Below, one piece after another: positions 34,521 to 53,245 of a stretch of 64,000 nt of DNA. The position numbers were made by a program, and so were the translations under genes. Where the stretch lies: assembly GCA_903824675.1 (NCBI GenBank), contig CAIJXV010000055.1, positions 39,395 to 103,394 of the forward strand, read 5' to 3'. A model generated the notes under the pieces. That model ran no database searches, was not told the DNA's origin, and saw only the letters and a list, made by a program, of their open reading frames with translations. Position 1 is the first letter of the stretch; the number at the start of each line of letters is the position of its first letter. This DNA is from an uncultured bacterium (lineage in GTDB: Bacteria > Verrucomicrobiota > Kiritimatiellia > CAIKKV01 > CAIJXV01).

Positions 34521-36551
34521 TTACTTGGCGGTCTTCGCCTTCTTCTCTGCAGCCGCTTTTTTCTTTTGGGCAATTTCGTCTTTGAATTTCTGAAGCTCTT
34601 GCTGATTGAGTTCCCGCTGATTTTCAGAAAGCACCAGTTGCCGTTCGACCAAGTCTGAATTTTCCGGGAGCCCGATCCGGTTATCCATCGAGCCTGGAGA
34701 GGCGATGCCCACCGTTACGAAAATAATGGTTTCAGTTTGGGATTTTTCCTTGTGCGTATGCGAGAATAGATATTTTCCGATCAGGGGGATATCGCCCAGG
34801 AGCGGGATCTTTTTGGTGACATCCCGATCTTCGGTTTCAGTCAGTCCGCCGATGGCGGCCGTTTTGCCATTATCAAGGCTGAAGATGGTTTTAATGGTCT
34901 TGGTAGAGGTGATCGGGAAGGAGTTCCCATCAGGGGCGACCTTGTTTTGCACAAAGCGGCTGATGGTCGGCGCGATGCGGACGGTGATATTGCTTTCGCT
35001 GTTGATGGTAGGGGTGACATCGAGGGTTACACCGAATTTGAAATACGGCTCTTTATCGTCGAGTTCGTACGTAGTGGTATTGGCCTGACCTTGCTGGCCA
35101 GGGGTGACCGTTCCCTTGATATTCGGCTCATTGTCGCCGATATGGATGGTTGCGGTTTCATCATTCGCGACGATGATTTTGGGATTGGAGGCCACGGTAA
35201 TGCCGGTCGTTTGTTTCAAGGCGCTCAGGATGACGGAAAAATCGTCGGCGCTTAAGACGGCCGTACGGATATCGGTGATGGTCCGTGCGTCAGAGGCGAG
35301 GAGCGACTGTTCGTTCAGCTTGCTTTGGTCGATGGTATCGGTGAGGGTCCGGGTGGGGGTGATAAGATCGGGTGTGGCGGGAGTGATGACGACGCCGTTT
35401 TGAATGACGGCCGGGGTGCCGGGCGTAATTTCCTGGTACTGCTGGCCGTCCTTGTCATAACGTTCATTAATCCCGTCAATATGGATCCGGTTGTCTTTCT
35501 GGTCCTGAGTATCCTTACTGCTATTGACTTTTTCGCCCTTATTTTCGTAACCGATTTTCATGCCGCTGACGCCGACTTTATAGCCTTCCAGCACCTGCCA
35601 GTTGATGCCGAGATCCTTGATGGCTTTATCGGTCAACTCGATGAATTTGGCCTCGATATAGACCTGTTTGCGAGGCTGGTCGATTTCCTTGATGACGCGT
35701 TTAATTTCGAGGATATTGGCCGAAGTGGCCCGGACGATCAGGGCGTTACCGGAATTAAACGGGACCACGCTTCCCTGGCCCGCGAGCATGGAGGAGACGA
35801 TGGTGATGACGTTGGTAACAGGGGCGTAACTGAGGAAGATGGTATCGGCGACCAGCGGGTCGGGTTGGCCGGCGGGGCGGGGGGCAATGGTATAGATCTT
35901 GGATCCGGCCGTGGTTTCCACCAGGGCCATGTTGTGCATGGACAAAATCGAATCGAGCGCCGGCTTCCACTCGACATCCTGAATATTGACCGTCACGGTC
36001 CCATGGAGATTGGACGCGGAGGCGATGATATTGGCGCCGGAGATACGGGTGAACATGCGAACGACATCCAGCAGAGGAACTTCATCCAAGGCGATGGAGA
36101 TAAGGTTGGGTTGCTGATTGGTGGGGAGGGCGATATCCAGGGTCTGGTCTTCCGGTTCCACATCGGGGGTGGGCGCCGCCTCTTCGACGGTGAGCGAGGC
36201 GATGGGTTCCTGAGGCATGACGCTGGGGGAGGGCGTCGTTTCGGCGGCAGGCGCCGGGGCGGGGGCAGGGGTTGGCGTGGCACCCGAATTGACGGGCGTT
36301 GCGGGGGCTGTACTCAGCGTGGCGGCGGCTTGAAGCGCATTGGATTCCGCGGCACTCCCAGCCGGTGCGGGGGCGCTGGTCGCCGGCACATATTCTGCCG
36401 GGATGGATTTCGCTGCGGGATCCTCCAAGGGGATCACGGGTTGGGGATTTGAATCCGGCGTTCGGACGGCTTGGGCGAAAAGTGACAAGACAGCGATCAG
36501 CGCAATACTGGCTGATAATGCGGACCAGACGATCAGATTCTTTTTGTTCAT
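34521..36551 (-). CDS. pilQ: Secretin (PilQ/GspD family)
   Basis: Signal peptide, Pro/Ala linker, N domains, ID.PR.QVYIEAKFIE, GV.LDVTP.I, KIPLLGDIPLIG.LF; end of pilMNOP operon. Confidence 0.88.
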   Translation of the reverse strand: MNKKNLIVWSALSASIALIAVLSLFAQAVRTPDSNPQPVIPLEDPAAKSIPAEYVPATSAPAPAGSAAESNALQAAATLSTAPATPVNSGATPTPAPAPAPAAETTPSPSVMPQEPIASLTVEEAAPTPDVEPEDQTLDIALPTNQQPNLISIALDEVPLLDVVRMFTRISGANIIASASNLHGTVTVNIQDVEWKPALDSILSMHNMALVETTAGSKIYTIAPRPAGQPDPLVADTIFLSYAPVTNVITIVSSMLAGQGSVVPFNSGNALIVRATSANILEIKRVIKEIDQPRKQVYIEAKFIELTDKAIKDLGINWQVLEGYKVGVSGMKIGYENKGEKVNSSKDTQDQKDNRIHIDGINERYDKDGQQYQEITPGTPAVIQNGVVITPATPDLITPTRTLTDTIDQSKLNEQSLLASDARTITDIRTAVLSADDFSVILSALKQTTGITVASNPKIIVANDETATIHIGDNEPNIKGTVTPGQQGQANTTTYELDDKEPYFKFGVTLDVTPTINSESNITVRIAPTISRFVQNKVAPDGNSFPITSTKTIKTIFSLDNGKTAAIGGLTETEDRDVTKKIPLLGDIPLIGKYLFSHTHKEKSQTETIIFVTVGIASPGSMDNRIGLPENSDLVERQLVLSENQRELNQQELQKFKDEIAQKKKAAAEKKAKTAK

Positions 36552-36575
36552 GGATACCGTTCCTTCCTTATCCTG

Positions 36576-39500
36576 TTAATAGGCCAAAATCCGATAATAT
36601 CGGTTGGAGACCCCGACACTGGTGGTGTCGACACAACTCATGAGTCCAGTCGTGCCGACGATATTGACACAACCGGGCACATCCGTCCAAGAATTAAGAT
36701 TCGTCAGGGAGGCGGTATACTGAATGGTATAAATCCAGTTGGGGTTCCCGTTCCAGGTAATAACGAAGCCGCTAGGAGAGGAAGTAATCGTGTCGGGTTC
36801 CATGTCGGAGGGGGCGGTTTCCGATGTCGGCAGGGTTAGCAGCAGGAGCCGGTTATGGCCGGTATCGGCGATGCAGAGGAAGCCGTGAGGGTCGAAGGCC
36901 ACGTCCTGCGGGAGACTCAGGGCGGAGGAACTGACCAGCAGTTTCCAGCCGGAGGGAAAGGTCGAACCGATCATGACGCGACTATTATCGTAATCGGCAA
37001 CGGCAATAGCCCCGTTGGTGTTGACTGACATCCCCCAGGAACTCTTAAACCCGCCGTCATTGGTCGCGGAACTCCCGATCCGATCTATATAGTTGCCCGA
37101 CGTGGTAAATCGCCGAATTCGGCTGAATGAATTTGTGCCGACAAAATCGGAGATCAATAGTTGGCCGCTGTTATTTAGGGCGATGCCGCGGGGTGCCCGG
37201 GTTTGATTATCGTTAAATCCGTTTGTGATGATGATCGACCAAACACCTGCTGAAGTGCGTTTCTGAACGCGATTGTTATAAAGATCGGTGACATATAAAT
37301 TGGTGGCGGCATCGATGGCCAGATCGAAGGGACCGCTGAGTTGCCCCGTTCCGGTGCCGGGACCGGCGATCAATGTCCAAGTGTTGGCCGCGCGATTCCA
37401 TCGTTGGACCCGGTCATTGATGGTGTCGGCCACATACAGGTTGGTGGCGCCATCGAGGGCGAGGGCGAGGGGTTGGTTGAATTGCCCCAAGTTGGTTCCG
37501 GCCGAGCCGAGAATGGACCAGGTTCCCGAGGTCGGGCTGTAAATCTGGATCCGATCATTTTCGCTGTCGGCGACATAGAGCCGGTGCATCTTGTCGTACA
37601 CCACGCTGGCGGGTTTGCTGAACTGTCCGCCCCCATTGGTTCCGTAATAGCCGAGGATCGCATATTGGTAGTAGGTGCCCGTCAGGAATGTGGTGATCTC
37701 GTTGGAGACGACCGCACTGACGGACGGAGGTTCGGCCCAGCCGACCACGGGCTTGAAGTCCACCGTATAGGTTCCGGCGCTTAAGGGAACAAAAGATCCG
37801 CTATTGGTCCAAGCTCCGCCCGCGACCCGCCACAAGGCTCCGGAGGCGATGGCATCCGGCGGTTGGAGGGTTACGAAAACTCCCGAAACCATGGTGTAGA
37901 GTCCGGTCCCGACAAAGGGTACGGCATTCGAGAAGGTGACCGTGAAGTTGGCCGGCGAAACATAAGGAACAGCCGCCTGGAATTCAATCGAATGGGTGCC
38001 GAGGGATAGATTGCTGACGGAATTCCCGGTTCCTTGCCAGCCGCCGCCATCGACCCGCCAAGCGGCTCCGAGAGCGATGGCACCTGCGGGTTCAAGGTAC
38101 AATCGGACCGCACTGGTGATCGGCACATAGACGGCGGTCAAGGTGGTTTCTGCCCCTTCGTTGATGGTGACGATGTCCGGAGATGGCTCAATCCAATTGG
38201 TGGCGGTTTGGTAATTAATCAGATGGAGACCGACCGTCAAGTTGCTGGCCGTTGCGCCGCTGGATAACCAAGGTCCGCCATCCACCCTCCATAAGGCGCC
38301 TTGGAGGAGGGCGGCCGCAGGTTGAAGCGTGACGGTCAATCGACCATTTTGAATATAGGTTCGCGTGAAGGTAGCTGTAATCCCGTTGGTCAAGGAAACG
38401 ATTTCATTGGAGGGTGCTGTCCACCCGGTGATGGGCAGATAAGTGATCGAATGGGGCCCCGGTGTGAGGGAGTCGACCGTAACGCCGCTGTCATTCCAGA
38501 TGCCGCCATCGACAGCCCATTGGGCGCCGTTGGCAATTGCCGGGGGCGGGAGCAACGAAATGCGGATACCCGGGGGGGGAATGATGGCCCCTGTTCCGTT
38601 AGCCGTGAAACGGACATTATGACGGAGGAGGGCGGCATGGATCCATTGGTTGGTCCAATCCTTGCGGAATTTGAAGTCCTGTGCTCCGAAGGGTTGATTA
38701 TAATTTCCAAAGGGGAACCGATTGGTATTGGCTTGGCTGTCGTCAAACCGGAAATATTGGCGGAGGTCGGACGCGGAAGCATCGATTGTCCGGTTTAGAT
38801 TGGTCTGGATATCGACGGGGGTTCGCACCGAGGACCAGATCCGGACTTCATCAATGAGGCCGAAGAAACCCTGGCCGAGGCGCACCCAGGAATCGCCGAC
38901 TTGTCCATTGAGCAAAGGTAGATCGACGAAGGTATTGGTCACCTTGTCCTGGGTTCCATTGGTATAGAGGATGAGGGTTCCGCTGCCCGGGTTATAGCTG
39001 GCCGCCAGGTGGGTCCATCGGCCGGCGGCGAAAGGGGTTCCGTTGAGATAATTGGTGGTGCCGAGCGCGGTGTGATATCCGGCATACGGCTGGACGAGAG
39101 CCCCGCTGTTACGGAGACCGAGGACATAGTTCATGGCCACGCTGCCATCGGAGAGGTGCTGAAGGCCACGGCCCAGGATGAGACCGCCCGCTGTATTGCT
39201 GGGATTGACCCAGGCTTCGAGGGTCCAGGTGGTTAGTCGTTGGCTCAGGTTGAGGGGAAGGTCGAGATAATCGTTGGTGGATCCGCCCAGCCAAACGGCC
39301 CGGGAGACGCCGGGATCGATGGCGTCCGCAGGGTTTGTTCCCGCGAGCCATTCCTCATGGTCGGTGAGTCCGTCGTCGTCGGTATCGGTCCAGTCGGGGC
39401 GGGTGCCGAGGGTTTGTTCGAGAAGGTTATTGAGCCCATCCCCGTCACGATCCTCCTGAATATCCAGGACGCCATCCTGATCGGTATCTTCAAAGTTGGG

Positions 39501-42443
39501 ATTCGTTTCCGACCAGTATTCGTAAAGGTTGCTGAGTCCATCGTTGTCGCGATCGCCGTCGGCGCCCTGGGCGCCATCGGCGTTCTTCGGATCGAGCCCA
39601 TTGAGCATTTCCCAGGGATCCGGGAGTCCGTCGCCGTCGGCATCATCTGCATTGCGGGAGTCGATTCCGAGAACATCGGCTACGTCATTGGTGACGAAGA
39701 TGAAATCGCTATTGGTGGTGAGGGCATAACCGAAATCGCCAAAGGTATAGTCTTCGGACGCCGTTCCGAGCAGACCGGATTTGGCCTTGCGGGCGAAATC
39801 CTCGGCCGTTTCGCCGCCGTCGTCGAAGCGGAAATAGGCCAACAGGCCGGCGGCATTTTGGGGGGCGAGATGGCGGCGATAATTTTCGATTTCCACTGCG
39901 GACCGGGCGACGCCCCAGATGCGGACTTCATCGATTGACACGCGGTTGACGAAGGACGCATTGGAATTATGGGCGATCGTGACGGGGTCGATCGAGGCGT
40001 AGAGCCGGCTGGAAATGCCGGGTTCAAAAATCCGTTGGCCGGCGTCGAAAACGCCATTGATATATAGAGAGAGAGAGTTCTGGGCGGGGCTCCAGACGGC
40101 GGCGAGATGGGTCCATTGATTGGACGGAATCGCCGACCCCACCTGGACGTAACGGAAGAGGCTGCTGACGGTGTCGAAGGCGATATGCGGAACGTTATTC
40201 GAAAGATAGAGCCGATAGGTGATCTGGTTGGGCAAGGGGCCGGGGTTATCGATCAGCCAGCCGGTGCAATTCGTTCCATCCAATTTGACATAACATTCGA
40301 GAGTCCACGCATCCCGGTGGAGCAGGGGACTGTAGCCGCGGCTGGGGGTTCCTTCGGGATCGGGAATTGCAATACCACTGGTGGACGTAATTCGCGCCGC
40401 CCGGCGAATAAAGGGCGACATGGAATGGACGGGACTGCTGGGTTCGGCCCAGCCCAGGTATTCAGACCGGATTTCGACGTCATCCGGGATACCGTCATCG
40501 TCCGTATCGGTCCCATAATCAACGCCGAAACTGCGGGTGGGGCGGGCGGCTCCGAGAGTACCATTGGAAGGCGAAACGGAGATGGAAGACCAATAATTGG
40601 CCGGAATATAGGGGCGTATGATACCGGGTCCGGAGCCGGTGCTGTCCGGACGCCAGTTGTGTTCGTTGGGATTGGTTTCGTCTCCGGACCCGTTGATGTA
40701 GGGTTTGACGGTATTACGGTAACCATCCTGGCCGGTATATTCTTCCGTGTTGAGCAAACCATCGAAATCGGGGTCGCCCCAGAAACCATCGGGATTGATG
40801 ATCCAGGTGAAGCCATTCCAGATAATGTCAGCGCCACTCCGGGGGTTGAGATTGAATTCGACCTCCCAGCCGTCGGGGAGCAGATCGCCATCCGTATCCC
40901 AGCCATCCGAGCCTTTGAGCGGATAATCGGATTCGTGGCCGCTGCCATGGGTTGGATCGGTCCAGTCATTATTGCGCAGGTTGACAAGGGTTCCGGTTGA
41001 CAGGGTGGTGTAATTGGTCGCGCCGAGGTTGAGGGAGACGGTCAGGGCGCGCAGGCCATTGGCGTCGATTCGGGGAAGGGCGGTGGTGCCCTTACTCCAG
41101 ATATCGTTAACGCCGCCTTCTTCCAAGGTATCCAAAAGGCATTGCTCGCGGTAGGCGGTGAGGCCGTCTTCGTCCTGATCGGCGCTTAACGAGCCTGCGG
41201 TATATGGATCGATGCCGTTGGACGGGTCGTACCAGGCGACTTCAAAGCTGTCCAACAGGCCGTCGCCATCGGTATCGAAGTTGAGCGGATTGAGACTGTC
41301 GGTGCTGGTGTTATCCACGGCGATTCCCGTGGACTTGGAGGGGTCCTGTTTCAGGCGGGGCTTATTGTCGATTCCGAGGTATTCATGGAGGTTGATCAAC
41401 CCGTCGCCATCCGCATCCCCAAAGCCATCGGCGACATCGGGGGTAAGTCCGGTACCATTGGCATAATGGTCGTATTCCCATTTATCGTCCATCCCGTCGG
41501 CATCGGAGTCAAAAAGCGCGGGGGAGAGTCGATTGGTCATGCCGGCGGCATAGAGGTCGTATTCTTTCTGGTTGGAAAGGCCGTCATTATCGTAGTCCTC
41601 ATCGCCCGTATGGGTGAGATTGCCGAAAAACGTCAGTTCCCAGGAGTCCAGAAGTTTATCGCCATCACTATCGAGGATAATATTGGGCAGGTAATTACGG
41701 GTCAGGGCAAGGGGAATCCCACTGATCATGGAAATGGGTTCATTGGAGGGGGAAATCCAAAGCGGCACAGACTGATAGGCTATGGCATGGGCACCGGCGG
41801 CGACCGTATTGGTCGTACCACTGGCCAACCAGGGACCGCCATCGATACTCCAGCGGGCACCGGCCGTACGGGCAGCGGCCGGTTCCAGGGTAATGGAAAG
41901 GTCGGCGACCGCTGGGGTATAAGAACGGGTGAGGGTCAGGCTTCCCGCTTCCAACATGGTCACGGACTCACTGGCGGGTGCATCCCAGCCCGCGGCGGGT
42001 TTGAAATCGATCAGGTGTGCCCCGACGCTGATATTGGAGACGGTGGTCCCTCCGTCCAGCCAGATGCCGCCATCCAGGCGCCACTGGGCGCCCGCGGCGA
42101 TGGCGGTCGGCGGATCGAGAATGACTCGTAAACTCCCGTTTTGCTGATAAGTTCGGATCAGCGTGACGGCGACGCCATTGACGAGGGGTAGGGTCTCATT
42201 GGTGGGAGCGCTCCAATTGAGGATGGGCTTGAAGGAGAGCAGATGGTTCCCCGGAGTGAGGTTTTGGAGGGTTACCCCATTATTTTCCCAATCGCCGCCA
42301 TCCAGGGTCCATTGTGCGCCGTCCAGCCGGGCTTGGTCGGGTTGGAGGAGGACCCGGAGAGAGGGGGGGGGATAAAGGCCCCGGGCTCGACAAAATCGAC
42401 ATTGCCGTTGAACCGGCCGGCATGAAACCAGGCGTTGGACCAA
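36576..42443 (-). CDS. C-terminal part of giant LamG/TSP3-like/NHL surface protein (frame continues from 42272-45889 at the C9 tract)
   Basis: GA.W.xDGG repeats, DxDxDG Ca-binding repeats, two LamG domains (WTLE.., IDEVRIW, YFRFDD), NHL propeller, C-terminal ..NRYYRILAY; no credible own start. Confidence 0.85.
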   Translation of the reverse strand: MVQRLVSCRPVQRQCRFCRARGLYPPPSLRVLLQPDQARLDGAQWTLDGGDWENNGVTLQNLTPGNHLLSFKPILNWSAPTNETLPLVNGVAVTLIRTYQQNGSLRVILDPPTAIAAGAQWRLDGGIWLDGGTTVSNISVGAHLIDFKPAAGWDAPASESVTMLEAGSLTLTRSYTPAVADLSITLEPAAARTAGARWSIDGGPWLASGTTNTVAAGAHAIAYQSVPLWISPSNEPISMISGIPLALTRNYLPNIILDSDGDKLLDSWELTFFGNLTHTGDEDYDNDGLSNQKEYDLYAAGMTNRLSPALFDSDADGMDDKWEYDHYANGTGLTPDVADGFGDADGDGLINLHEYLGIDNKPRLKQDPSKSTGIAVDNTSTDSLNPLNFDTDGDGLLDSFEVAWYDPSNGIDPYTAGSLSADQDEDGLTAYREQCLLDTLEEGGVNDIWSKGTTALPRIDANGLRALTVSLNLGATNYTTLSTGTLVNLRNNDWTDPTHGSGHESDYPLKGSDGWDTDGDLLPDGWEVEFNLNPRSGADIIWNGFTWIINPDGFWGDPDFDGLLNTEEYTGQDGYRNTVKPYINGSGDETNPNEHNWRPDSTGSGPGIIRPYIPANYWSSISVSPSNGTLGAARPTRSFGVDYGTDTDDDGIPDDVEIRSEYLGWAEPSSPVHSMSPFIRRAARITSTSGIAIPDPEGTPSRGYSPLLHRDAWTLECYVKLDGTNCTGWLIDNPGPLPNQITYRLYLSNNVPHIAFDTVSSLFRYVQVGSAIPSNQWTHLAAVWSPAQNSLSLYINGVFDAGQRIFEPGISSRLYASIDPVTIAHNSNASFVNRVSIDEVRIWGVARSAVEIENYRRHLAPQNAAGLLAYFRFDDGGETAEDFARKAKSGLLGTASEDYTFGDFGYALTTNSDFIFVTNDVADVLGIDSRNADDADGDGLPDPWEMLNGLDPKNADGAQGADGDRDNDGLSNLYEYWSETNPNFEDTDQDGVLDIQEDRDGDGLNNLLEQTLGTRPDWTDTDDDGLTDHEEWLAGTNPADAIDPGVSRAVWLGGSTNDYLDLPLNLSQRLTTWTLEAWVNPSNTAGGLILGRGLQHLSDGSVAMNYVLGLRNSGALVQPYAGYHTALGTTNYLNGTPFAAGRWTHLAASYNPGSGTLILYTNGTQDKVTNTFVDLPLLNGQVGDSWVRLGQGFFGLIDEVRIWSSVRTPVDIQTNLNRTIDASASDLRQYFRFDDSQANTNRFPFGNYNQPFGAQDFKFRKDWTNQWIHAALLRHNVRFTANGTGAIIPPPGIRISLLPPPAIANGAQWAVDGGIWNDSGVTVDSLTPGPHSITYLPITGWTAPSNEIVSLTNGITATFTRTYIQNGRLTVTLQPAAALLQGALWRVDGGPWLSSGATASNLTVGLHLINYQTATNWIEPSPDIVTINEGAETTLTAVYVPITSAVRLYLEPAGAIALGAAWRVDGGGWQGTGNSVSNLSLGTHSIEFQAAVPYVSPANFTVTFSNAVPFVGTGLYTMVSGVFVTLQPPDAIASGALWRVAGGAWTNSGSFVPLSAGTYTVDFKPVVGWAEPPSVSAVVSNEITTFLTGTYYQYAILGYYGTNGGGQFSKPASVVYDKMHRLYVADSENDRIQIYSPTSGTWSILGSAGTNLGQFNQPLALALDGATNLYVADTINDRVQRWNRAANTWTLIAGPGTGTGQLSGPFDLAIDAATNLYVTDLYNNRVQKRTSAGVWSIIITNGFNDNQTRAPRGIALNNSGQLLISDFVGTNSFSRIRRFTTSGNYIDRIGSSATNDGGFKSSWGMSVNTNGAIAVADYDNSRVMIGSTFPSGWKLLVSSSALSLPQDVAFDPHGFLCIADTGHNRLLLLTLPTSETAPSDMEPDTITSSPSGFVITWNGNPNWIYTIQYTASLTNLNSWTDVPGCVNIVGTTGLMSCVDTTSVGVSNRYYRILAY

Positions 42444-45400
42444 TCGCCCGGATAGACGAAGTCCTGGGCGGACTGGGGCTGATGAAAGGCATCAAAGGGG
42501 AAGACGTTGGTCGTTGCCTGTCCATCGTCGAAGCGGAAGTAATGAATCAACCCGGTGGGGAGTGTATCCAGGAGCAACCGATAACTGGCCGCGATTTCGC
42601 CTGCGGACCGGGCAAAGTTCCAGATACGAATTTCGTCGAGTTGTCCGGCGAATCCTTCACCGATGCGGACGAACGTTTCCCCGCCCTTGCCATTGATAGG
42701 GGGGTCAATGGCGAAGCTATTGGTGAGAGCCACCGCGGAGGCGTTGGTATAGAGAACCAGAGTGGCAGCGTGATTGTTGTAGGTGGCGGCGAGGTGGGTC
42801 CATGTCCCCGTGGGCACGGTTCCACCGCGGAGGATATAGGATGCGCCACTGCTCAATACATAACCGGCATAGGGCCGAAGGGTGCTGCCGTTTGTTTCGA
42901 GGCCGAGGACAAAGGTCATGCCATAATTGTTGCCCCCGCCGATGGCCTGGACCGTCCGGCGCACGATGATGCCGTCCCCATCGACCGCATTGGACGGGTT
43001 AACCCAGGCTTCAAGTGTCCAACTTCGAAGGCGTTGGGCGTACGATTGGGGAATGGTCATGTAATCATTGGACCCCCCGCCGAGGGTGAGGGCGCGGGAG
43101 ACACTTCGGTCGAGAGGATTCACGGGGTTGGTGCCGGCGCTCTGTTCGATATTGTCGGGATCCCCGTCATCATCCGTATCCTTAAGGTTGGGGCGACTAC
43201 CGAGATCTTGTTCGGTGATATTGGCGACGTTGTCGCCATCGAAATCCTCATTACCATCGAGGACACCGTCCCCATCGGTATCTTCGGCATTGGGGTTGGT
43301 TTGAGACCAATATTCGTAAATATTCGAGAGCCCGTCCTTGTCGGGGTCGCCTTGCGCCCCGTCAGGTCCGTCGGCGGAGAGGGGATTTAAATGGTGGATG
43401 ACTTCCCAGGCGTCAGGCAAGCCGTCCCCGTCCGAGTCATCCGATCCATCGGCATCGACTCCGCGAATAGGCGCCGCGGTATTGGTGACGAACTGGAAAT
43501 TATTGGTGGCCAAAGCATAACCGAAATCGCCGAAGGTATAGTCTTCAGATGTTGCGTTCAGGAGGCCGGTCTTGGCTTTCCGGGCAAAATCCTCGGCGGA
43601 TGAACCTCCGTCATCAAAGCGATAATAGGCGAGCAGGTTGGGACTTTTTTGGGGGACCAGTCGGGTCCGATACATTTCGAGTTCTTCAGCGGTCCGGGGG
43701 GCGCCCCAGATGCGGACCTCGTCCAGATAGACTTTATTGATAAACGAGGCATCGCTTGCAGCGCCGAGCGCGAGGGGCGTGGGCGTGCTGAAGAGTCTTG
43801 ACGAAAGGGCTTCCTGAAAGACGAGTGTTTGTTGGACAAAGATGCCGTCGACGTAGAGCGAGAGGCTGTTGGATGCGTAGTTCCACACGCCGGCGAGATG
43901 AATCCACTGATTGGTGGGCAATGGCAAGCCGATGGCGGAATACAAGGGAAAGGCCCCGCCGACCCGATGAAAGCTGATCATGGGGGTGTTATTGGTCAGC
44001 GAAAGGCGATAGACAATCGAAGCCCCGCCGACGGTGGGCCGGGTGTGATTGATGAGGTAACCGGTGCAATTGGTGGCCATCAGTTTGACCTGGCATTCGA
44101 CCGTCCAATCGCGTCTGTGCAACAGGGGACTGTAGCCTTGAGTGGTTCCCTCGGGGTCGGGAATGGTGATGCCGGATGCGGCGGTGAGAAGAATGGCGCG
44201 GTGGATGAACGGGTCGGTGGAGTGGACCGGACTGGATCCACGGCCAAGTCCGAGATAGGCGGCCCAGATTTCATCGCTGTCGGACAGTCCGTCGTCATCC
44301 GAGTCGGTTCCAGGATCAACCCCCAGGCTGGTGGTGGGAAGGGCTGCGCCGAGGGTGCCGAAGGCGGGGGAGGCATCAGCGGTATTCCACCAGTTCGAGG
44401 CGATGGAAGGACGGCTGGTGCCGGGACCGGAAGCCGTGCTCATAGGCCGCCAGTTGTGTTCGTTGGGACTGGTTTCATCACCCGTGCCGTTGATATAGGG
44501 GAGGGCGAGCGACCGATTGCCGTCCTGACCGAGATATTCTTCGATGTTGACCAGTTGATCTTTATCGCGATCACCCCAGAAACCGTAATCGTTCACCACC
44601 CCATTGGTGAGTGAGTCTCCGCTCTTGGGATCCAAATTAAACTCGACTTCCCAGCCATCGGGAAGCAGGTCGTCGTCGGTGTCATGGCCGGGTTGAGGCG
44701 ACTCATCATAACTCGATCCATCGGTGGGGTCGGTCCAGGCATTATTTCGGAAGGTGTCGATGCCTGCCCAAATGGTGGGATTGCTGGCCCCCAGGCTGAG
44801 GGGAGGATTGAAGGCCCGTAGTCCATTGATGTCGATGATGGGCAGAGAACTGGCCGCGCCCACCGTCCACAGGTCATTGACACCGCCCTGACGCAAGGCG
44901 GGGAGCAAACACATTTCCCGGAAATTACTCAATCCATCGAGGTCGGGGTCTGCGGCGGGATTTCCCGGGGACCGGGGATCGATTCCGCTCGCCGTGTCGT
45001 ACCAGGTGGCTTCGAAGCTGTCGATCAGGGTATCGTTGTCGGTGTCAACATCGATGGGGTTGATATCGTCCGTACTGCCGGTGATGAGGGCGATTTGGCC
45101 TGAAAGCGACGGATTTCTTTTCCGGGGCGGGATGCCGTCGACGCCGTTGTATTCCTGAAGATTGGTCAAGCCGTCGCCATCGGCGTCGGCTTGGGCATCG
45201 GCGGTGATGGGGTCCAATCCCGTTCCGAACGCGTAATAGCTGTATTCCCAGCCGTCATCCATGAGGTCGCCATCGCTGTCCCACTTAATGGGGCTGAGCA
45301 TCGTCAGGGGCGGCGAGAAGGCCAGGTTCCGGCTGATGTCGTATTCCTGCTTATCGGTCAGTCCGTCATTGTCGTAATCGCCAGCTCCAGCCGAGGTCTC

Positions 45401-45889
45401 GAGGTCACCAAACCAATAGACCTCCCACCAATCGGGAATGCCGTCATTATCGGAATCGTCGGTGATGGTAACCGTCAATCCCAATATATCGTTACTGGTC
45501 AGGTTGATGGCTTGCGGCGGGCTCAAGGGTTCGCCGAGATCGTGGGCACCATTGTTATTACCGTCCACCCAGGCGGACAGGGAATAGGTTCCACTGGTCG
45601 CAGAAAACGTGAAGGCATGGTAGGAATTCAGGGCAAACGGCAGGGATGACGTGGACGACAGGCCGGATGAAAAACCGGGCGTGCCGAGGATTTCACTGCC
45701 TTGATTCCAGAGGCCGACATAAATCTGGCCGGCACCCGTGCCGTCACCAGGCGGAGTTAACCCGGTATTGCTCCAAGTCGACCGGTTGCGCACATTACCC
45801 GACAGGGACTGGGCGGAGGCCGATGCGCCGGGCCAAAGCCAGGCGCCGACACAACACGCCATCCCCAGTGCGAGGAGGCTTTTTTTCAT
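42272..45889 (-). CDS. N-terminal part of giant LamG/TSP3-like surface protein
   Basis: Signal peptide (..ASASA), DxDxDG repeats, two LamG domains; homology to the second repeat stops at GAFIPPP. Confidence 0.85.
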   Translation of the reverse strand: MKKSLLALGMACCVGAWLWPGASASAQSLSGNVRNRSTWSNTGLTPPGDGTGAGQIYVGLWNQGSEILGTPGFSSGLSSTSSLPFALNSYHAFTFSATSGTYSLSAWVDGNNNGAHDLGEPLSPPQAINLTSNDILGLTVTITDDSDNDGIPDWWEVYWFGDLETSAGAGDYDNDGLTDKQEYDISRNLAFSPPLTMLSPIKWDSDGDLMDDGWEYSYYAFGTGLDPITADAQADADGDGLTNLQEYNGVDGIPPRKRNPSLSGQIALITGSTDDINPIDVDTDNDTLIDSFEATWYDTASGIDPRSPGNPAADPDLDGLSNFREMCLLPALRQGGVNDLWTVGAASSLPIIDINGLRAFNPPLSLGASNPTIWAGIDTFRNNAWTDPTDGSSYDESPQPGHDTDDDLLPDGWEVEFNLDPKSGDSLTNGVVNDYGFWGDRDKDQLVNIEEYLGQDGNRSLALPYINGTGDETSPNEHNWRPMSTASGPGTSRPSIASNWWNTADASPAFGTLGAALPTTSLGVDPGTDSDDDGLSDSDEIWAAYLGLGRGSSPVHSTDPFIHRAILLTAASGITIPDPEGTTQGYSPLLHRRDWTVECQVKLMATNCTGYLINHTRPTVGGASIVYRLSLTNNTPMISFHRVGGAFPLYSAIGLPLPTNQWIHLAGVWNYASNSLSLYVDGIFVQQTLVFQEALSSRLFSTPTPLALGAASDASFINKVYLDEVRIWGAPRTAEELEMYRTRLVPQKSPNLLAYYRFDDGGSSAEDFARKAKTGLLNATSEDYTFGDFGYALATNNFQFVTNTAAPIRGVDADGSDDSDGDGLPDAWEVIHHLNPLSADGPDGAQGDPDKDGLSNIYEYWSQTNPNAEDTDGDGVLDGNEDFDGDNVANITEQDLGSRPNLKDTDDDGDPDNIEQSAGTNPVNPLDRSVSRALTLGGGSNDYMTIPQSYAQRLRSWTLEAWVNPSNAVDGDGIIVRRTVQAIGGGNNYGMTFVLGLETNGSTLRPYAGYVLSSGASYILRGGTVPTGTWTHLAATYNNHAATLVLYTNASAVALTNSFAIDPPINGKGGETFVRIGEGFAGQLDEIRIWNFARSAGEIAASYRLLLDTLPTGLIHYFRFDDGQATTNVFPFDAFHQPQSAQDFVYPGDWSNAWFHAGRFNGNVDFVEPGAFIPPPLSGSSSNPTKPGWTAHNGPWMAAIGKIMG
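42363..42371 (-). repeat. C9 homopolymer (G9 on + strand) at the frameshift
   Basis: + strand GA-GGGGGGGGG-ATAAAGGCC; the reading frame switches here. Confidence 0.9.
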
Positions 45890-45901
45890 AGAGGGGGCAT
45901 C

Positions 45902-46555: not shown

Positions 46556-46640
46556 GCGGATCTCTCCCCGATTTTAGTAGGACACCGACAATGGCTGATA
46601 TTTGATCGCTACGCGCACAGGAGTGCGCTTGCGAGCAGGA

Positions 46641-47105
46641 TCACCGGCTTTGAGCCTCCAGAGGATTAAGCTTGATGTTTTTTTCGGCAATGGAAGCGAC
46701 TTTCCAACGATATTTAAAATCGGGCGTGGCCGCATCGACGATGCTGCCTTCTTCCACGACCCGTCCGTTGATGACGGCGAAAAAAGTGGGGTGCCCGGTT
46801 TTTTTGTCGATGCCAACCCGGCTGATTCCCTGAACTTTAAGCAGTTTGCGGGCCGCATCCCATTGGGGTTCCTTGGGTGAAGGGGGAAGCGTGTCGGCGG
46901 TGGTGCCGGTGGAATTAACCGCGAAAGAAATAACCGGAGCGGGGACGGGATTGGAAGGGACATAGCTGACCGGCCAAAAAGGATCCCGCAGGCGGGTGGC
47001 TGGGGTGATGACCACGATTCCCGCCGGTGCTGCATCATCCGCCCGGACCGGCAGGCTGAAAACCACGGAAAGGGCTACGCAGGTGAAAAGGAGGGATGTT
47101 TTCAT
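46641..47105 (-). CDS. PilP-like assembly protein
   Basis: Signal peptide, LRDPFWP motif, V.GI...A.INGR.V..G; ATGA-coupled to pilO (start 47105). Confidence 0.65.
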   Translation of the reverse strand: MKTSLLFTCVALSVVFSLPVRADDAAPAGIVVITPATRLRDPFWPVSYVPSNPVPAPVISFAVNSTGTTADTLPPSPKEPQWDAARKLLKVQGISRVGIDKKTGHPTFFAVINGRVVEEGSIVDAATPDFKYRWKVASIAEKNIKLNPLEAQSR

Positions 47106-47776
47106 GGAGCGTCCTCCACGGGAGTGGCGGTGGGCGTCGGTGAGGCTGAACTGGGCTCCGGCGCCGGATTCTCGTCCGTACCTTTTTCGGCTTCGGCCCA
47201 CACCGGCCATTCAATCGAAAAACTGATCTGGTGGGATTCCGGAACGGACGATTGAGACATGATCGAGAGTTCGGAAATGCAAAGCAGGGAATTGCTCGCT
47301 TCCAATTGGTGGACCAGATTCAGTAATTGAGGATAACCGCCGGACCCGGTCATGCGAGCCCCATACGATTTGAGCAAATGCTTGGATCCATTCTTTTTTT
47401 TGCCGGGAATCTCGGCGAAACCGATTTCGCTGGCAGGATTGAGCTCGAGCCCCGCCTCACTTGAAAATTGTTCCAAGTTGGCCTGAATGCCGATCAGGTA
47501 GGTGCCCAGAATCGGTTGCGCCAGATACACTGAAAGGGCCTCAACCTGGGTCCCGACGGCATCGAACTGCTTTTGGATCGTTTGTACCTTGCGAAGTTCC
47601 GTCATCATATCCTCGTATTCGGCCTGCTTCTTTTCGAGGGACGCAAGATTTTTCTTATGAGATTCCATGACCGGCAAAATGATCAATTGGAAGATGGCAA
47701 AGATGACGGCAAGCCCCCCCATTAAGATCATGGCCAGAATCTTGATGCGCTCGTTCTTGTTGTCAGGTAATTTCAT
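47102..47776 (-). CDS. pilO: PilO/GspM-like protein
   Basis: Single TM, coiled coil, G.Y..L......LE.....L.I..L.I; synteny. Confidence 0.7.
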   Translation of the reverse strand: MKLPDNKNERIKILAMILMGGLAVIFAIFQLIILPVMESHKKNLASLEKKQAEYEDMMTELRKVQTIQKQFDAVGTQVEALSVYLAQPILGTYLIGIQANLEQFSSEAGLELNPASEIGFAEIPGKKKNGSKHLLKSYGARMTGSGGYPQLLNLVHQLEASNSLLCISELSIMSQSSVPESHQISFSIEWPVWAEAEKGTDENPAPEPSSASPTPTATPVEDAP

Positions 47777-48393
47777 TCGAATTTCAGCGGCTTATACTTG
47801 CAGACGAGTTCGAACAGACGATCGGTTTTGGCGGCCTTGGGATCCGGATCCTGTCGAAAACTTCCCGGGGGGATGGCGATTTCCTGGAGATACGGTTGAA
47901 GCGTGGGGTCTTTGAGGAGATCCTGGCGGAATTTGTCGACTTCCGCGTCAGCCCGGGCGGATGTAGCGCGACCCTTGATTTGTATTTTGAAGACCCGTGC
48001 GGTTTTTTTGTCGACGGTTTGCACGACCCGGTCGATTCGGAGTTCCGTCAGTTGAATGGTGGGCGGAACCAGAACCTGAATGGCTTTCAACTGTTCATAA
48101 ACAGGGAGGCGTGCGGATTTCCAGCCTTGGAATTCGGTCAGGACATCTTTTTGACGGTTCAAATTGGTGGTCAATGCGATTTGTTCATCATATTGCGGCT
48201 TAATTTTCTTGATGCTCGTATTGACCCAATGGAGGTGTTCATTGACATCGCGCATATGTTTACCGAAAACGAGGATGACGAATACGAGCGCGGAGATCAC
48301 GGTAAACGTCAGAATCCGGAGGAATAAGGAGAGCGAGACGAGACTGGCGCTTCGTCGTTCGGCAACCTGTATGAGATCGACCCGCAGGTTCAT
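47773..48393 (-). CDS. pilN: PilN-like protein
   Basis: VDLI N-terminal motif (INLL-like), TM, coiled coil, P..IQLT.L; synteny; start placed at 48393. Confidence 0.7.
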   Translation of the reverse strand: MNLRVDLIQVAERRSASLVSLSLFLRILTFTVISALVFVILVFGKHMRDVNEHLHWVNTSIKKIKPQYDEQIALTTNLNRQKDVLTEFQGWKSARLPVYEQLKAIQVLVPPTIQLTELRIDRVVQTVDKKTARVFKIQIKGRATSARADAEVDKFRQDLLKDPTLQPYLQEIAIPPGSFRQDPDPKAAKTDRLFELVCKYKPLKFE

Positions 48394-49418
48394 GGTGGTG
48401 TATCCAGGGTTCCCCACGCTGCGCCCATGGCAGCCGAGAAACGGGATTCTCGGCCCTTGAGTTCATCCGGAATCGCGCCTGGCTGTATGGTCACGGGCTC
48501 AAAGGGGTCCCAAAGGGTGATCGGCAATCCCAAGGCGTTTTGAACAACGGCATTCCAATCGCGGGAGGCGGTTGCGCCGCCGCTGACATAAATCCGGCTG
48601 ATCCGACAGTTCTCCCGGCGTTCCAGGAAATCGCGCGAGATCACCAGCTGCTTGATAAAGGGATCCATGGCGTCGGTGAAAAATTGAGAGAGATCGATCG
48701 ATCCGCCCGAGACGATTTCCAAGGCGGTCGCCGCATCCACCCCCATGCTTTTCTGCACCCGGGCGAGAATGGCATTGGATCCAAAATCAAATTTACGGAC
48801 GAGTGCTGCGACGGACTTGTTGAAAATGGCCATGAAACTGACTTCCGCGCCAAAATCGATGACCCCGACGGTGTCCTCTTTGTGTTGGAAGACCGGTCCC
48901 TGCAGGAAGGACGAGAGACTGGCCAATCCGGAAACTTCGATAGAGTAGGGCGCCGGAAAGCCGGAGGGGAAAAGTTGGAGGGCCCATTGAATATCCGCCT
49001 CCGGGATAGCGACGACGAGCACTTTCGATTCCGTGCGACCATGGCCTTCGCTTAAAATGCGGTAGGAAATCCGGAAATCAGCCGTTTTATCAATGCCCAT
49101 CATCTCGCTGAGTTGGGCTTCCATCGTGGCATCCGTCTTCCCCATGAAGCTGAGTAGCTTAACGAGGGCTGATTTGCCGGTCAAGGCGATGGAGACCTGA
49201 CGGGCGGAGAGATTTTTGGGGAGGAGTAAAGGCAAAACCGGACTGCCCTCTGGGGGGAGGGTAATCGCGGGGAGCAGGGCGGCCGCCACGAGGGTTGGGG
49301 CGGTTGTTGAATCGGGATTGCGTTTTAAGCGGACCGCCTTGACCCCTCCAGCGGCAACATCCACTCCGACAATGTCGGCAACCCCGCGTTTGAAATTAAA
49401 TTTCATACCGTCGATCAA
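48390..49418 (-). CDS. pilM: PilM actin-like assembly protein
   Basis: VGVDV....VKAV.L, VIDFGA, IYVSGG, WDPF, AAMGAA. Confidence 0.85.
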   Translation of the reverse strand: MIDGMKFNFKRGVADIVGVDVAAGGVKAVRLKRNPDSTTAPTLVAAALLPAITLPPEGSPVLPLLLPKNLSARQVSIALTGKSALVKLLSFMGKTDATMEAQLSEMMGIDKTADFRISYRILSEGHGRTESKVLVVAIPEADIQWALQLFPSGFPAPYSIEVSGLASLSSFLQGPVFQHKEDTVGVIDFGAEVSFMAIFNKSVAALVRKFDFGSNAILARVQKSMGVDAATALEIVSGGSIDLSQFFTDAMDPFIKQLVISRDFLERRENCRISRIYVSGGATASRDWNAVVQNALGLPITLWDPFEPVTIQPGAIPDELKGRESRFSAAMGAAWGTLDTPP

Positions 49419-50704: not shown

Positions 50705-50721
50705 GATCGGACTCCTTATGT

Positions 50722-52824
50722 TTATTTTGCGGTGTTAAGTGGACGAACTTCCATCAGACCGGAGACCTTATTGGTGCCGAAGGGGCCGGTCTTGTAAATT
50801 TCCATATCAATTTCGAGGCCCTTGATGAACTGGTTGCCATCGACGGTGGCGCCAATAATGCCATAGTTGGGGCCCTGGCCCAGATCGACGGTCAGATCGC
50901 AAATGCCGGTGGGCGGAGTCCATTCGATGGTCACATCGCGCAAATACGCGGTGATGAGATGTTCAGTATGACCGATAGAACCCGCTGGAGATCCGTCGGT
51001 CGTAAAAAGCGCTTCGTATTGGAGATAGCGACCGGCTCCAATTCCCGCCAAGCTATTGGCGTCTGATGGATTTTGGAAATAGGTGGATGAAATCCAGGGG
51101 CCGGCATCGCTGAGATCGGGATTGTCCCCGCTTCGAGCCCGGATATCAATGTCGCCAGCGGAATAGTTTTCGACATGGGTCCAGTTTAGTTTTCGATAGG
51201 CGGGGTTGATGATATGCGTGTCGAAAATACCCGAACGATAGATTCCCTGATCGGGATACCGCACCTCGATCTTGCTGATCCCCACCAGGTTGGGTGACTG
51301 ATCGCCATCAATGTAGCTCATGTGCCACTTGGTGCTGACCCATCCTCGGGCGCAACTTTGGGCCATGGAATCGGTTTTACGGTCAAAATAGACCAGATAA
51401 CTTTTGTCGCGATTGATGGTCGTGTCGAGCCAGTCGCTCCAGACCCCGGTATTGGCCGAAATTCGTTTGCTGGTACTGCCCGAAAAATAGATTTGCTTAA
51501 TGGTCCCGGAGACCGGATTCGTGTTGGCGGCCATTTCGGCGATGTAGACGTCATTGATGAAGAGGCTGTCGTTGGAGCCGGCCTCGAAATAGAAACGGGC
51601 CCATACGCCATTCAGAATAATTTTGGAATAGATTTCGGATCCGCCCCAGATGATATTATAGATGGTGTCCGAATTGGTGATGGCGAACGAGGGAATATCG
51701 CCTTCGGTGCAGTTGGCGGCAGACCAGGCAATACCTTGTTGGAGCGCAAGGCAAATATCGGGAATATAGGGGGAGGAGGAGGCGAAAGAGTCTATTTTTT
51801 GCCGGCTGGTATTGCTGTTGATGAGACCGATCTGATCGTCAAAATGGGTGTCGCACCAGAGGTCGTTAAAGACTTTGAAGTTGATATAGTGGTTGGAGGA
51901 GGGAGGGGTGAAGGTGAGTTGGGCGTCCCCGCTCCAGGACGCGCCGTAGGCTGACATGACTTGGGCGGAAACGGAGCCGCCGGAAATGGTATAGGCGTAA
52001 GAGGGGGCCCCATCGGAACCGCTGGGAATATAGGAATTCCGCAGATACATCTCGCCTTCCCGGGCACTGTCGCTGGCGCTGAGCGCGAATTTGTCGAACC
52101 CGACGGAATAGCCGGAACTCAACGGGTTTTTGTCGACAACCGTGAACTTCAGGTCGTGCATGCCGTTGGTGAGTACGATGCTGCCCCAGTTGACGGTTTT
52201 GGCTTTGCGATAGCTGGGAGCATAGCCGTCGAATCGGACTTCCGGTGGGCGGAGGTAAAGTTTAACCAGATTGGCGAAGATAACTTTGGAGGCAACCGCT
52301 TCGACGACTCCATTGGCATTGGTGAGGCGGGCGGCTTGCAATCCGGCCGTGTTGGTCGCCTGCACCGTTTTAAGGAGTTGCCCATAAAGTTCGGAGGGCG
52401 TGGCATTGGTTTTACGGGGTGAGTAGACCGTGCGGAGCAGTTCGTCCGGTGAACCGGTGCGGACGTGATAGACGACGGTTTTGTCCCAAATGATCTTGCC
52501 CGCGGCATCCCGGGTGAGGAGACCGTCGTTGCCGGGGGTAGCCAAAGGGATGCTGAATGCGGTGTAAACCGTGCCGGTGGCTGGATAGAAAGCCATCAGA
52601 CCAATGCCGACGCTGGAAAGCCGCAGATCCTGTCGGATTCGTTCGGTGGCTATTTCCAGGTTGATATTCAATTCGCTTTTAATCATTTCCGTGCGCCAAG
52701 TCCGCAGACCATTGATGAAAGCCATGGTGGTACTGCCGATGACCAAGGTTGCAATGGTGAGTGCAACGAGGATTTCGGTGATCGTAAACCCGCAGACCCC
52801 TGTTTTCTGGCGATGAATTTTCAT
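50722..52824 (-). CDS. Large (700 aa) PilW/GspJ-like minor pilin
   Basis: G|FTITEILVAL class III signal, I..DLR, terminal V.P.N. Confidence 0.75.
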   Translation of the reverse strand: MKIHRQKTGVCGFTITEILVALTIATLVIGSTTMAFINGLRTWRTEMIKSELNINLEIATERIRQDLRLSSVGIGLMAFYPATGTVYTAFSIPLATPGNDGLLTRDAAGKIIWDKTVVYHVRTGSPDELLRTVYSPRKTNATPSELYGQLLKTVQATNTAGLQAARLTNANGVVEAVASKVIFANLVKLYLRPPEVRFDGYAPSYRKAKTVNWGSIVLTNGMHDLKFTVVDKNPLSSGYSVGFDKFALSASDSAREGEMYLRNSYIPSGSDGAPSYAYTISGGSVSAQVMSAYGASWSGDAQLTFTPPSSNHYINFKVFNDLWCDTHFDDQIGLINSNTSRQKIDSFASSSPYIPDICLALQQGIAWSAANCTEGDIPSFAITNSDTIYNIIWGGSEIYSKIILNGVWARFYFEAGSNDSLFINDVYIAEMAANTNPVSGTIKQIYFSGSTSKRISANTGVWSDWLDTTINRDKSYLVYFDRKTDSMAQSCARGWVSTKWHMSYIDGDQSPNLVGISKIEVRYPDQGIYRSGIFDTHIINPAYRKLNWTHVENYSAGDIDIRARSGDNPDLSDAGPWISSTYFQNPSDANSLAGIGAGRYLQYEALFTTDGSPAGSIGHTEHLITAYLRDVTIEWTPPTGICDLTVDLGQGPNYGIIGATVDGNQFIKGLEIDMEIYKTGPFGTNKVSGLMEVRPLNTAK

Positions 52825-52837
52825 GGCGATCTTCTTT

Positions 52838-53245
52838 CTAAAATTTATTAGAAATCAGCGTGGTGACTTTGACCGGTTGCGCGCTCAAATTGGTTCCCCG
52901 ATGCGGGTAATACACTTCCACCTGTATTTGGGTCAAATTGGGTGCGACATTAGTGTTGATGGTGGTGGGTCGCCGGTAAAGACCATTCTGCTTAAGATTC
53001 CCTTCGCCGTCGATTGCGACCCCGCTGGGTTCAGCCATTAGAGACAAACTGCCGTAATCGAAACTGAGCGCGCGTTGAATACGGTTGCGAGCGATTAATG
53101 TGGCCCGATAATTGTCGCCCGCCAGCTTGTGCGTCCGAAGCGCTCCAATAAAGACGGCATAGAACCCGGCACAAAAGATCATAAAAATGAAAGCGGCCAC
53201 AATGACTTCAACTAATGTCATTCCTTTTTTAAGGTTCATTTTCAT
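52838..53245 (-). CDS. PilV/GspI-like minor pilin
   Basis: KKG|MTLVEVIVA, A..IA.NRI; 135 aa. Confidence 0.75.
   Translation of the reverse strand: MKMNLKKGMTLVEVIVAAFIFMIFCAGFYAVFIGALRTHKLAGDNYRATLIARNRIQRALSFDYGSLSLMAEPSGVAIDGEGNLKQNGLYRRPTTINTNVAPNLTQIQVEVYYPHRGTNLSAQPVKVTTLISNKF

Follow-up and report, generated by a model that had tools for sequence, protein, structure and literature searches.

We analysed a stretch of 64,000 nucleotides (nt), hereafter the window, from an uncultured bacterium of the Kiritimatiellia (Verrucomicrobiota; GenBank assembly GCA_903824675.1, contig CAIJXV010000055.1, positions 39,395 to 103,394 of the forward strand). Between positions 34521 and 53245 it holds a type IV pilus-like operon in which the gene for a giant secreted protein of 3104 amino acids (aa) lies directly upstream of the secretin gene. 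Our preferred reading, which we hold tentatively, sees the giant as a surface adhesin, optional and specific to this lineage, with a genetic tie to the secretin of a type IVa pilus (T4aP)-like machine; it would be neither a core part of this machine nor a homologue of PilY1. Type IV pili and type II secretion systems (T2SS) are textbook machines with gene sets that are regarded as well charted, and the pilMNOPQ genes normally form an uninterrupted series. In this order-level group of uncultured freshwater bacteria, two extra genes stand between the alignment complex and the channel, one for a core lipoprotein with immunoglobulin (Ig)-like domains and one for the optional giant lectin-type protein. 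The pairing of giant and secretin is kept in relatives and seems to be undescribed; a literature search whose scope excluded subscription journals and supplementary files found no description of a giant LamG/NHL protein inside pilMNOPQ.

The operon comprises eleven genes, all co-oriented on the minus strand (Table 1). Three prepilin-like genes are followed by pilM, by small genes resembling pilN, pilO and pilP that encode bitopic or secreted proteins, by the gene for the two-Ig lipoprotein, by the giant and finally by the secretin. The genes overlap or almost touch, with ATGA overlaps at the M/N, N/O and O/P junctions. Only 12 nt separate the lipoprotein stop (45902) from the giant start (45889), and 24 nt separate the giant stop (36576) from the secretin start (36551). 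Gene set, orientation, coordinates and both gaps are as a first-pass annotation of this DNA had described them.

To place the operon in a wider context, we compared 41 genomes, namely this one and 40 relatives, which with one exception share its order and not its genus by assignment. A secretin ortholog is found in 38 of the 41 genomes and the giant, recognized by a profile of its last 455 aa, in 25. In each of the 25 carriers the 3' end of the giant gene immediately precedes the secretin gene, with both on one contig and one strand (in genome G009 this applies to the weaker of two matches). The carriers span five family-level groups (f1, 2/2; f2, 0/3; f3, 1/2; f4, 1/1; f5, 0/7; f6, 1/1; f7, 20/25), and their secretins are just 48-59% identical. 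We fetched 20 upstream stretches, and tblastn detected pilM, pilN, pilO, pilP and the lipoprotein in all of them, with pilM cut by the contig end at locus L043. The giant lies between lipoprotein and secretin as a single open reading frame (ORF) of 1856-2006 aa in 13 of these 20 contiguous loci, and the lipoprotein directly adjoins the secretin with no giant between them in the other 7. The order pilMNOP-lipoprotein-giant(-secretin) recurs at L059, L062, L063, L064, L068, L069, L070 and L074 (PilP was not detected at L062, and L068 and L074 end inside the giant), and at L067 the pair is kept in reversed order, secretin then giant. The first-pass annotation had counted a lack of conserved linkage between the giant gene and pilMNOPQ against its reading; the linkage of the giant to pilMNOP, lipoprotein and secretin is conserved.

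The giant is not found in 16 of the 41 genomes, 13 of which keep a secretin ortholog. In a quick secretin tree, in which the G002 row sits on a very long branch and is unreliable, the giant-less genomes G023, G030 and G031 each fall beside carriers, and at least six state changes are needed. G031 holds a 53-aa ORF exactly between lipoprotein and secretin (L045:170-331, minus strand, on G031:C25) that encodes the end of the giant's last domain. This ORF is the scar of a deletion that took nearly the whole giant gene. Taken together, these comparisons indicate that the giant is old in the group, optional and repeatedly deleted.

The lipoprotein, conversely, is kept with or without the giant and therefore belongs to the machine rather than to the giant. 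Its lipobox cysteine, Cys27, is invariant in 17 of 17 aligned orthologs. An AlphaFold2 model with a mean predicted local distance difference test score (pLDDT) of 82.7 consists of a signal helix, a linker and two beta-sandwiches. The Foldseek matches were all to tandem Ig domains of a generic kind (phage tail, LigA, intimin, S-layer), and no likeness to solved pilotins or secretin partners was seen among the structures it ranked; by sequence the protein matches intimin (E = 5.9e-4).

The giant begins with a Sec-type signal peptide (residues 1-26, read from the sequence), followed by an N-terminal beta-sandwich, a first module, three GAxW sandwiches, a second module, four GAxW sandwiches, an NHL domain (2745-3016) and an Fn3-like domain (3017-3104). 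Each module consists of a run of TSP3-type DxDxD motifs, a LamG domain, a second TSP3 run and a second LamG domain; the two modules, of about 1050 aa, are 53% identical to one another. The GAxWxxDG beta-sandwiches are of about 80 aa each, and the protein contains 26 DxDxD[GND] and 7 GAxWxxDG motifs in all. A Pfam scan of the two ORFs into which the window splits the gene (E<=0.01) gave matches only to Laminin_G_3 (twice per ORF), TSP3_bac (below its cut-off) and NHL, and the GAxW domain had no match in a PDB-sequence search. The layout confirms the domain order read at first pass. The AlphaFold2 model of the last 455 aa (pLDDT 86) contains a six-bladed NHL propeller, for which Foldseek ranked the propellers of TRIM71, Lin41 filamin-NHL, Thin and PknD best in the PDB; target-normalised TM-scores were 0.83-0.91 for nearly all single-domain NHL structures listed and 0.77-0.79 for the Brat NHL. 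Two relatives of the giant carry vWA domains: P0015 (2363 aa; vWA, LamG and NHL), which matches the whole query region, and P0119 (3131 aa; vWA, LamG and TSP3, with no NHL listed), which matches 32% of it.

The length of the giant ranges from about 1850 to at least about 5600 aa and the number of modules from one to four. One-module giants have about 1850-2000 aa, and giants of about 3000-3500 aa are found in this genome, in G004 and G011 and at L059, L062 and L063; the giant at L060 has at least 5380 aa. The sister species has a four-module giant: on G001:C53 (L052 and L053) its ORF continues without a break for at least 5079 aa up to the contig end, and a further 550 aa or so of the giant stand beside the secretin on G001:C247 (L054). 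The length of the giant thus varies by module duplication.

The machine to which the giant is linked has the set of parts expected of a type IVa pilus: a separate PilM, a secretin, a PilB-type ATPase, a PilC platform and prepilins. PilB, PilC and a major pilin of 119 aa are encoded 10-13 kb upstream of the operon on the same strand, with pilin, PilC and PilB at L001:125-484, 725-1891 and 1923-3650, all on the minus strand. The first-pass remark that PilB and PilC are not in the window thus holds, yet they lie directly past its right end, and the 3' part of the pilin gene is inside it. The PilB block scores 466.5 bits for T2SSE and 199.4 bits for T2SSF. PilB itself carries an MshEN domain and reaches 648.9 bits on TIGR02538, narrowly missing the cut-off of 675.65, versus 612.1 bits on GspE (cut-off 630). 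The secretin scores 173.6 bits for PilQ and 171.4 for GspD, both under the cut-offs; its closest solved relatives are T2SS GspD (110.7 bits), then PilQs (89 and 83 bits). Matches to the T2SS equivalogs searched all fall under their cut-offs (GspD against 351, GspE as above, GspM 30.1 against 60, GspI 20.5 against 44; GspC and GspL were not searched). With its separate PilM and a PilB score above that for GspE, the machine scores slightly closer to a T4aP than to a T2SS. The genome has 6 secretin matches in all and 13 T2SSE matches, 12 of them above the family cut-off and some PilT-sized.

We propose that the giant would enter the periplasm through Sec by means of its cleavable signal peptide and would fold into a long fibre of the beads-on-a-string type, stiffened by Ca2+ at its 26 thrombospondin-type DxDxD loops. 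Its way out of the cell would then be the secretin, whose gene lies 24 nt downstream, with the pilus or pseudopilus serving either as a piston, following the logic of type II secretion, or as a carrier. Once outside it would stay at the surface, where the four LamG lectin-type domains and the NHL domain could bind polysaccharide or particles in lake water, and duplication of the module of about 1050 aa could set the reach of the fibre. We infer the coupling of giant and secretin from gene order, conservation and domain content; export through the secretin, binding of Ca2+ and glycans and retention at the surface are predicted steps. The first-pass annotation had offered the giant as the dedicated cargo of a T2SS-like machine, which fits better than its other proposal, a replacement of PilY1; the machine, however, scores slightly nearer to T4aP, and the passage of the giant through the secretin is conjectural.

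Several observations weigh against the giant as an adhesin coupled to the secretin. The machine resembles a true retractile T4aP no less than it does a T2SS, and ATPase frames of PilT size are found elsewhere in the genome; its separate PilM, the PilB score above that of GspE and these ATPases favour a pilus-borne role. The family includes the vWA-bearing P0015, and many PilY1 proteins have a head domain of the vWA type. At L060 the giant lies about 7 kb away from pilMNOP-secretin and is convergent to it, so that adjacency of giant and secretin is not obligatory. Finally, the domain that ends the giant also closes 18 other large open frames of the genome, among them S8, M4 and M6 peptidases and LVIVD, LRR, cadherin, PKD and fn3 proteins, and among 1.84 billion representative proteins 32,630 match it at E<=0.001 and 1204 at E<=1e-10. 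With so generic a last domain, the giant could use a general export route unconnected with the machine.

This terminal domain is of about 88 aa and Fn3-like, and the protein ends at the point at which an Fn3 fold would continue with its last strand. A profile of the giant's last 90 aa or so, run for three iterations against the six-frame ORFs of the genome, recovered it in 20 open frames. It ends 0-3 residues from the stop in 19 of the 20, the giant included, measures about 80-95 aa, and nearly always closes with …[FY][YW]R[IVL]xxx. Besides the contig of the window (C55), the carriers lie on contigs C6, C13, C15, C20, C31, C37, C44, C45, C58, C61, C65, C67, C73, C93, C102, C103 and C123 (loci L138-L155). 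Among the best 150 of the matching representative proteins, 149 have several copies (median 4) and 99 have a copy at the end. By this distribution the giant ends in an Fn3-like module that is very common in the phylum and frequently, though not invariably, terminal; the domain is not a dedicated pilin-docking piece. Sorting or anchoring may be its function.

No Pfam or NCBIfam model covers the sandwich, a PDB-sequence search gave no relative, and the Atlas returned unnamed Verrucomicrobiota clusters only (0.83). Homology to Amuc_1099_fam is not supported: the matches, seen in 6 of 24 last-domain sequences and under the cut-off, cover only the TSP3 motif ahead of the domain (model positions about 101-157). 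We also considered export by a type IX secretion system (T9SS) and rejected it. No T9SS C-terminal-domain family appeared among the Pfam and NCBIfam matches of the 24 sequences at E<=0.1, and SprA_N had no match in the genome, where the positive control gave no match either. On one of the contigs, C123, a 7061-aa paralog (24217-45399, L146) combines an S8 subtilase, TSP3 repeats and a …YYRI end, with six Laminin_G_3 stretches in the last 4500 aa scanned, and the neighbouring frame (19668-23825, L151) encodes an M4 peptidase of 1386 aa that likewise closes with this domain.

The first alternative concerns PilY1, which the first-pass annotation had reported missing and had supposed to be replaced by the giant. 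PilY1 is described as a protein with a seven-bladed PF05567 propeller that sits in the minor-pilin cluster (PMC13190605, PMC7541494) and that primes pilus assembly in model organisms (PMC7541494, PMC11525922). No PF05567 match was obtained in our genome, which is 96% complete; the control matched in no genome, and the result reads as "not found" rather than "absent". The first part of the claim therefore stands with this qualification. The giant is not a PilY1 homologue. It has Laminin_G_3, TSP3_bac and NHL matches only, its propeller is six-bladed rather than seven-bladed, and pilM, pilN, pilO and pilP stand between it and the pilin genes.

The giant could nevertheless be a non-homologous substitute for PilY1 at the pilus tip, docked on the PilV/W/X-like pilins through its NHL or last domain with the LamG domains facing outward, so that retraction would reel in polymer or particles. 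We regard this as possible but doubtful. The layout is that of PilY1, with a C-terminal propeller, variable N-terminal adhesive modules and a Sec signal peptide (PMC13190605, PMC7541494), and S. sanguinis PilC is a known case of lectin modules at the pilus tip (PMC9934059). The missing PF05567 match (for which there is no positive control), the minor-pilin genes in the giant's operon here and in G006, the T4aP-like scores of the machine and the vWA domains of P0015 point in the same direction. Against a tip role, the giant travels with the secretin and not with minor pilins. For most relatives, the sequence fetched upstream of pilM (about 10 kb where the contig allowed) revealed no PilW/X-like gene, and the giant still abuts the secretin. 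A PilW-like pilin is found in 21 or 22 of the 41 genomes, and its presence is not associated with the giant (13 of 25 genomes with it, 9 of 16 without). A protein missing from 16 of 41 genomes is a poor fit to a PilY1-type priming role, and the last domain, common to proteases, is generic. The replacement proposed at first pass is thus not supported. A complex prediction with the PilX-like protein (residues 18-363), the PilV-like protein (9-135) and the giant's NHL and last domains returned "no answer" (score 0.00), which speaks neither for nor against binding.

It is also conceivable, though we think it unlikely, that the giant is no more than an ordinary secreted adhesin, which leaves the cell by a different route and merely sits in the pilus operon and is co-transcribed with it, with no physical or functional tie to the machine. 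The repeated loss of the giant with retention of the flanking genes would agree with such a hitch-hiker, as would its placement outside the operon at L060. Among the 18 other proteins that share its generic last domain, 16 are encoded on contigs without a secretin match, and C93 is the only one of the 17 other contigs with a secretin within 10 kb of a terminal-domain gene. In addition, contig C123, home of the 7061-aa LamG/TSP3 paralog, has no secretin or T2SSE ATPase match. On the other side stand the secretin adjacency, seen in all 25 carriers although these come from five family-level groups with secretins of low identity, the pair retained under a rearranged order at L067, and the very short gaps around the giant.

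A far broader proposal, which we consider quite improbable as it stands, is that PilQ-type secretins of Verrucomicrobiota and Lentisphaeria are dedicated gates for fibrillar lectin adhesins (1850 to more than 5600 aa) that would be threaded or carried by the pilus and tethered near the channel, with the "…FYRI" domain as a shared retention or sorting tag. This would amount to a pilus-secretion hybrid whose cargo class and tag have not been described so far.

The remaining alternative touches the integrity of the gene. As given in the window, the giant gene is split into an ORF of 1205 aa (42272-45889) and one of 1955 aa (36576-42443), which overlap and change frame at a homopolymer (C9 on the minus strand; Table 1). 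We compared contigs from four public runs of lake-water or freshwater metagenomes: X1, the possible source sample; X2, another sample of the same study; and X5 and X6, from two other studies. All four have an extra G behind position 42362, which gives a giant ORF of 3104 aa. They contain no further frame-breaking change, and they differ otherwise only by the in-frame loss of 3 bases in X5 and X6, whose contigs span the junction of the two internal modules. The sister species is in frame at this site by way of an interrupted C run. Because all four runs and the sister species are in frame, we attribute the frameshift to an assembly error; the giant gene is intact in the natural population. The protein of about 3100 aa announced at first pass is accordingly a single ORF once the base is restored, although the window itself holds two, and without this correction the gene would be annotated as two genes or as a pseudogene. 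That the frameshift is genuine, marking a pseudogene or a phase-variable switch that turns the giant off, would explain the window as given, and homopolymer switches are known in pilus adhesin genes; this is nevertheless highly improbable in view of the in-frame length in all four runs (the possible source sample, re-assembled, and two further studies are among them), the interrupted run of the sister species and the commonness of G or C runs of at least 9 nt in the genome (108). Phase variation at the homopolymer was rejected because the run contigs all carry the extra G, with the limit that contigs are blind to minority variants and low-level length variation would be compatible with them.

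Should the giant pass through or dock on the secretin, it would widen the cargo and tip repertoire of these machines, give access to the question of how proteins of such length pass the outer membrane and suggest a possible means by which abundant polysaccharide degraders of lakes seize polymers and particles. The analysis also flags a very common terminal domain in this phylum.

Table 1. Features of the pilus-like operon and its surroundings in the window (positions in the 64,000-nt stretch).
Feature	Position	Strand	Basis
Minor (pseudo)pilin, PilV/GspI-like, 135 aa	52838..53245	-	PF07963 N_methyl 27.6 bits (cut-off 21.2)
Large pilin-like protein, 700 aa, "PilW" by position	50722..52824	-	Pilin models match N-terminus only
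"PilX/GspK" by position, 363 aa	49613..50704	-	Prepilin-like N-terminus …NQG/FALVIAMVIL… read from sequence
PilM, actin-like, cytoplasmic, 342 aa	48390..49418	-	PF11104 PilM_2 41.8 bits (cut-off 27)
PilN-like bitopic protein	47773..48417	-	Position and one transmembrane segment
PilO/GspM-like bitopic protein, 224 aa	47102..47776	-	T2SSM 17.8 bits, NF040576 GspM 30.1 bits, both under cut-offs
PilP-like secreted protein, 154 aa from internal ATG overlapping pilO stop	46641..47105	-	Signal-peptide-like N-terminus
Conserved lipoprotein, two Big_2/Ig-like domains, 217 aa	45902..46555	-	Lipobox, AlphaFold2 model
Giant secreted protein, 3104 aa with missing base counted	36576..45889	-	ORFs and run contigs
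G9/C9 homopolymer, one base short in window assembly	42363..42371		Frame changes here
Secretin, 676 aa, N-terminal linker rich in Pro/Ala/Thr	34521..36551	-	PF00263 127 bits (cut-off 27.5), PF03958 Secretin_N 40.9 bits
Candidate operon promoter, sigma-54-type, -24/-12-like (TGGCAC-N5-TGTGCT)	53283..53298	-	38 nt upstream of first pilin ATG
Major pilin gene, 3' part (119 aa in all), runs off window end	63731..64000	-	N_methyl

The assignments of the smaller operon genes differ in strength. The 135-aa pilin has weak N-terminal matches to GspI, PilV and GspJ, all under the cut-offs. The 700-aa protein matches the HpsC pseudopilin on residues 4-68 (E = 4.9e-6) and N_methyl at E = 0.034, and the 363-aa protein had no family match in the Pfam and NCBIfam scans; the first-pass names pilW and pilX are thus warranted for the pilin-like N-termini and for nothing beyond them. 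PilM scores 50.2 bits on TIGR01175, under the cut-off of 133. The PilN-like gene probably starts at the ATG at 48393, whose overlap with the pilM stop reads ATGA, and the orthologs start with MHINLI; the start of the PilO-like gene overlaps the preceding gene by 4 nt. The PilP-like protein has an invariant RDPFWPxxY motif, and its closest named Atlas cluster is PilP (0.90, 156 shared features), which we take as a lead only. The N-, O- and P-like proteins gave no PilN, PilO or PilP Pfam match at E<=5, and the N- and P-like proteins gave no PDB-sequence match, profiles included. The labels pilN and pilP therefore agree with order, size and topology and lack the support of a family or PDB sequence.

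The candidate sigma-54 promoter has one mismatch to the consensus. The window contains 4 such matches versus 1.77 expected, a count that is not significant, so that the position alone is suggestive. A similar element lies about 75 nt upstream of the major pilin gene (L001:558-573, minus strand), where L001 has 3 matches versus 0.34 expected. Scans of the operon for sigma-70 promoters and terminators gave counts at the level of shuffled sequence. Beside the PilB block, a divergent histidine kinase and a sigma-54 activator resembling PilS/PilR are encoded at L001:7122-9914 (plus strand). The interval of about 10 kb between the operon and the PilB/PilC/pilin block (53719-63469) encodes PAS, B12-binding radical SAM, methyltransferase, DUF2304 and GT2 proteins, two large TPR proteins and two small proteins without assignment; these genes may form a surface-glycan or pilin-modification set.

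Among known systems, the PilY1/PilC proteins of Pseudomonas, Neisseria and Myxococcus share with the giant a large non-pilin chain with a Sec signal, variable N-terminal adhesive modules, Ca2+-binding motifs, a propeller near the C-terminus and a place in a pilus cluster. They differ in that the giant has a six-bladed NHL propeller instead of the seven-bladed PF05567 propeller, is encoded beside the secretin and not in the minor-pilin operon, is modular and 2-5 times longer, has a generic Fn3-like end and is not found in 16 of 41 genomes, 13 of them with a secretin ortholog. T2SS operons with embedded cargo include that of the E. coli lipoprotein mucinase SslE/YghJ, encoded with a pilotin by the gsp genes, and that of the pullulanase PulA. 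Like the giant, SslE/YghJ and PulA are very large secreted or surface proteins in the operon of a secretin machine with a small lipoprotein gene nearby, and there export through the machine is known. In contrast, the machine described here is PilB-like with a separate PilM, the giant has no enzyme domain, and the two-Ig lipoprotein stays where the giant is absent. T9SS cargo is alike in logic only, combining a Sec signal peptide with a terminal beta-sandwich. In S. sanguinis PilC a lectin fold of the ConA/LamG type serves glycan binding in a type IV filament system, as is predicted for the LamG domains of the giant; there, however, the lectin is fused to a pilin in the filament tip, whereas the giant carries its LamG domains on a non-pilin Sec substrate.

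A useful comparison within the phylum is MUL2, a type IV-like pilus locus of Akkermansia (Amuc_1098-1102), which has been proposed to attach to complex glycans (PMC13174399). It too is a Verrucomicrobiota type IV-like cluster with uncharacterised secreted proteins between PilM and the secretin, and the gene just upstream of the secretin (Amuc_1099 family) has a TSP3-type motif (PMC13174399, PMC5332112). The operon here differs in its N/O/P-like genes, its GspI/J/K-like pilins and a protein of 3104 aa instead of about 320 aa. On Amuc_1098_fam, with its cut-off of 750, our secretin reaches 102.5 bits, and on Amuc_1099_fam the giant reaches 15.9 bits; with scores this low and a MUL2-like locus elsewhere in the genome, the operon was rejected as the MUL2 counterpart. 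That locus (L156, C93:74001-92400) is complete, with Amuc_1102-, 1101-, 1100-, 1099- and 1098-family genes followed by a 5'-3' exonuclease, CoaE, Rho and trigger factor. Amuc_1102_rel (58.9 bits, cut-off 55) and Amuc_1099_fam (67.3, cut-off 50) pass, and Amuc_1101 (483.6), Amuc_1100 (80.7) and Amuc_1098 (424.5) fall below their cut-offs. The exonuclease/CoaE/Rho flanks are those described for MUL2 (PMC13174399, PMC5332112). A 995-aa protein with the …FYRI domain is encoded divergently upstream of the locus. Since the MUL2-like locus sits on C93, the operon described here is a second, more canonical pilus-like system of this bacterium.

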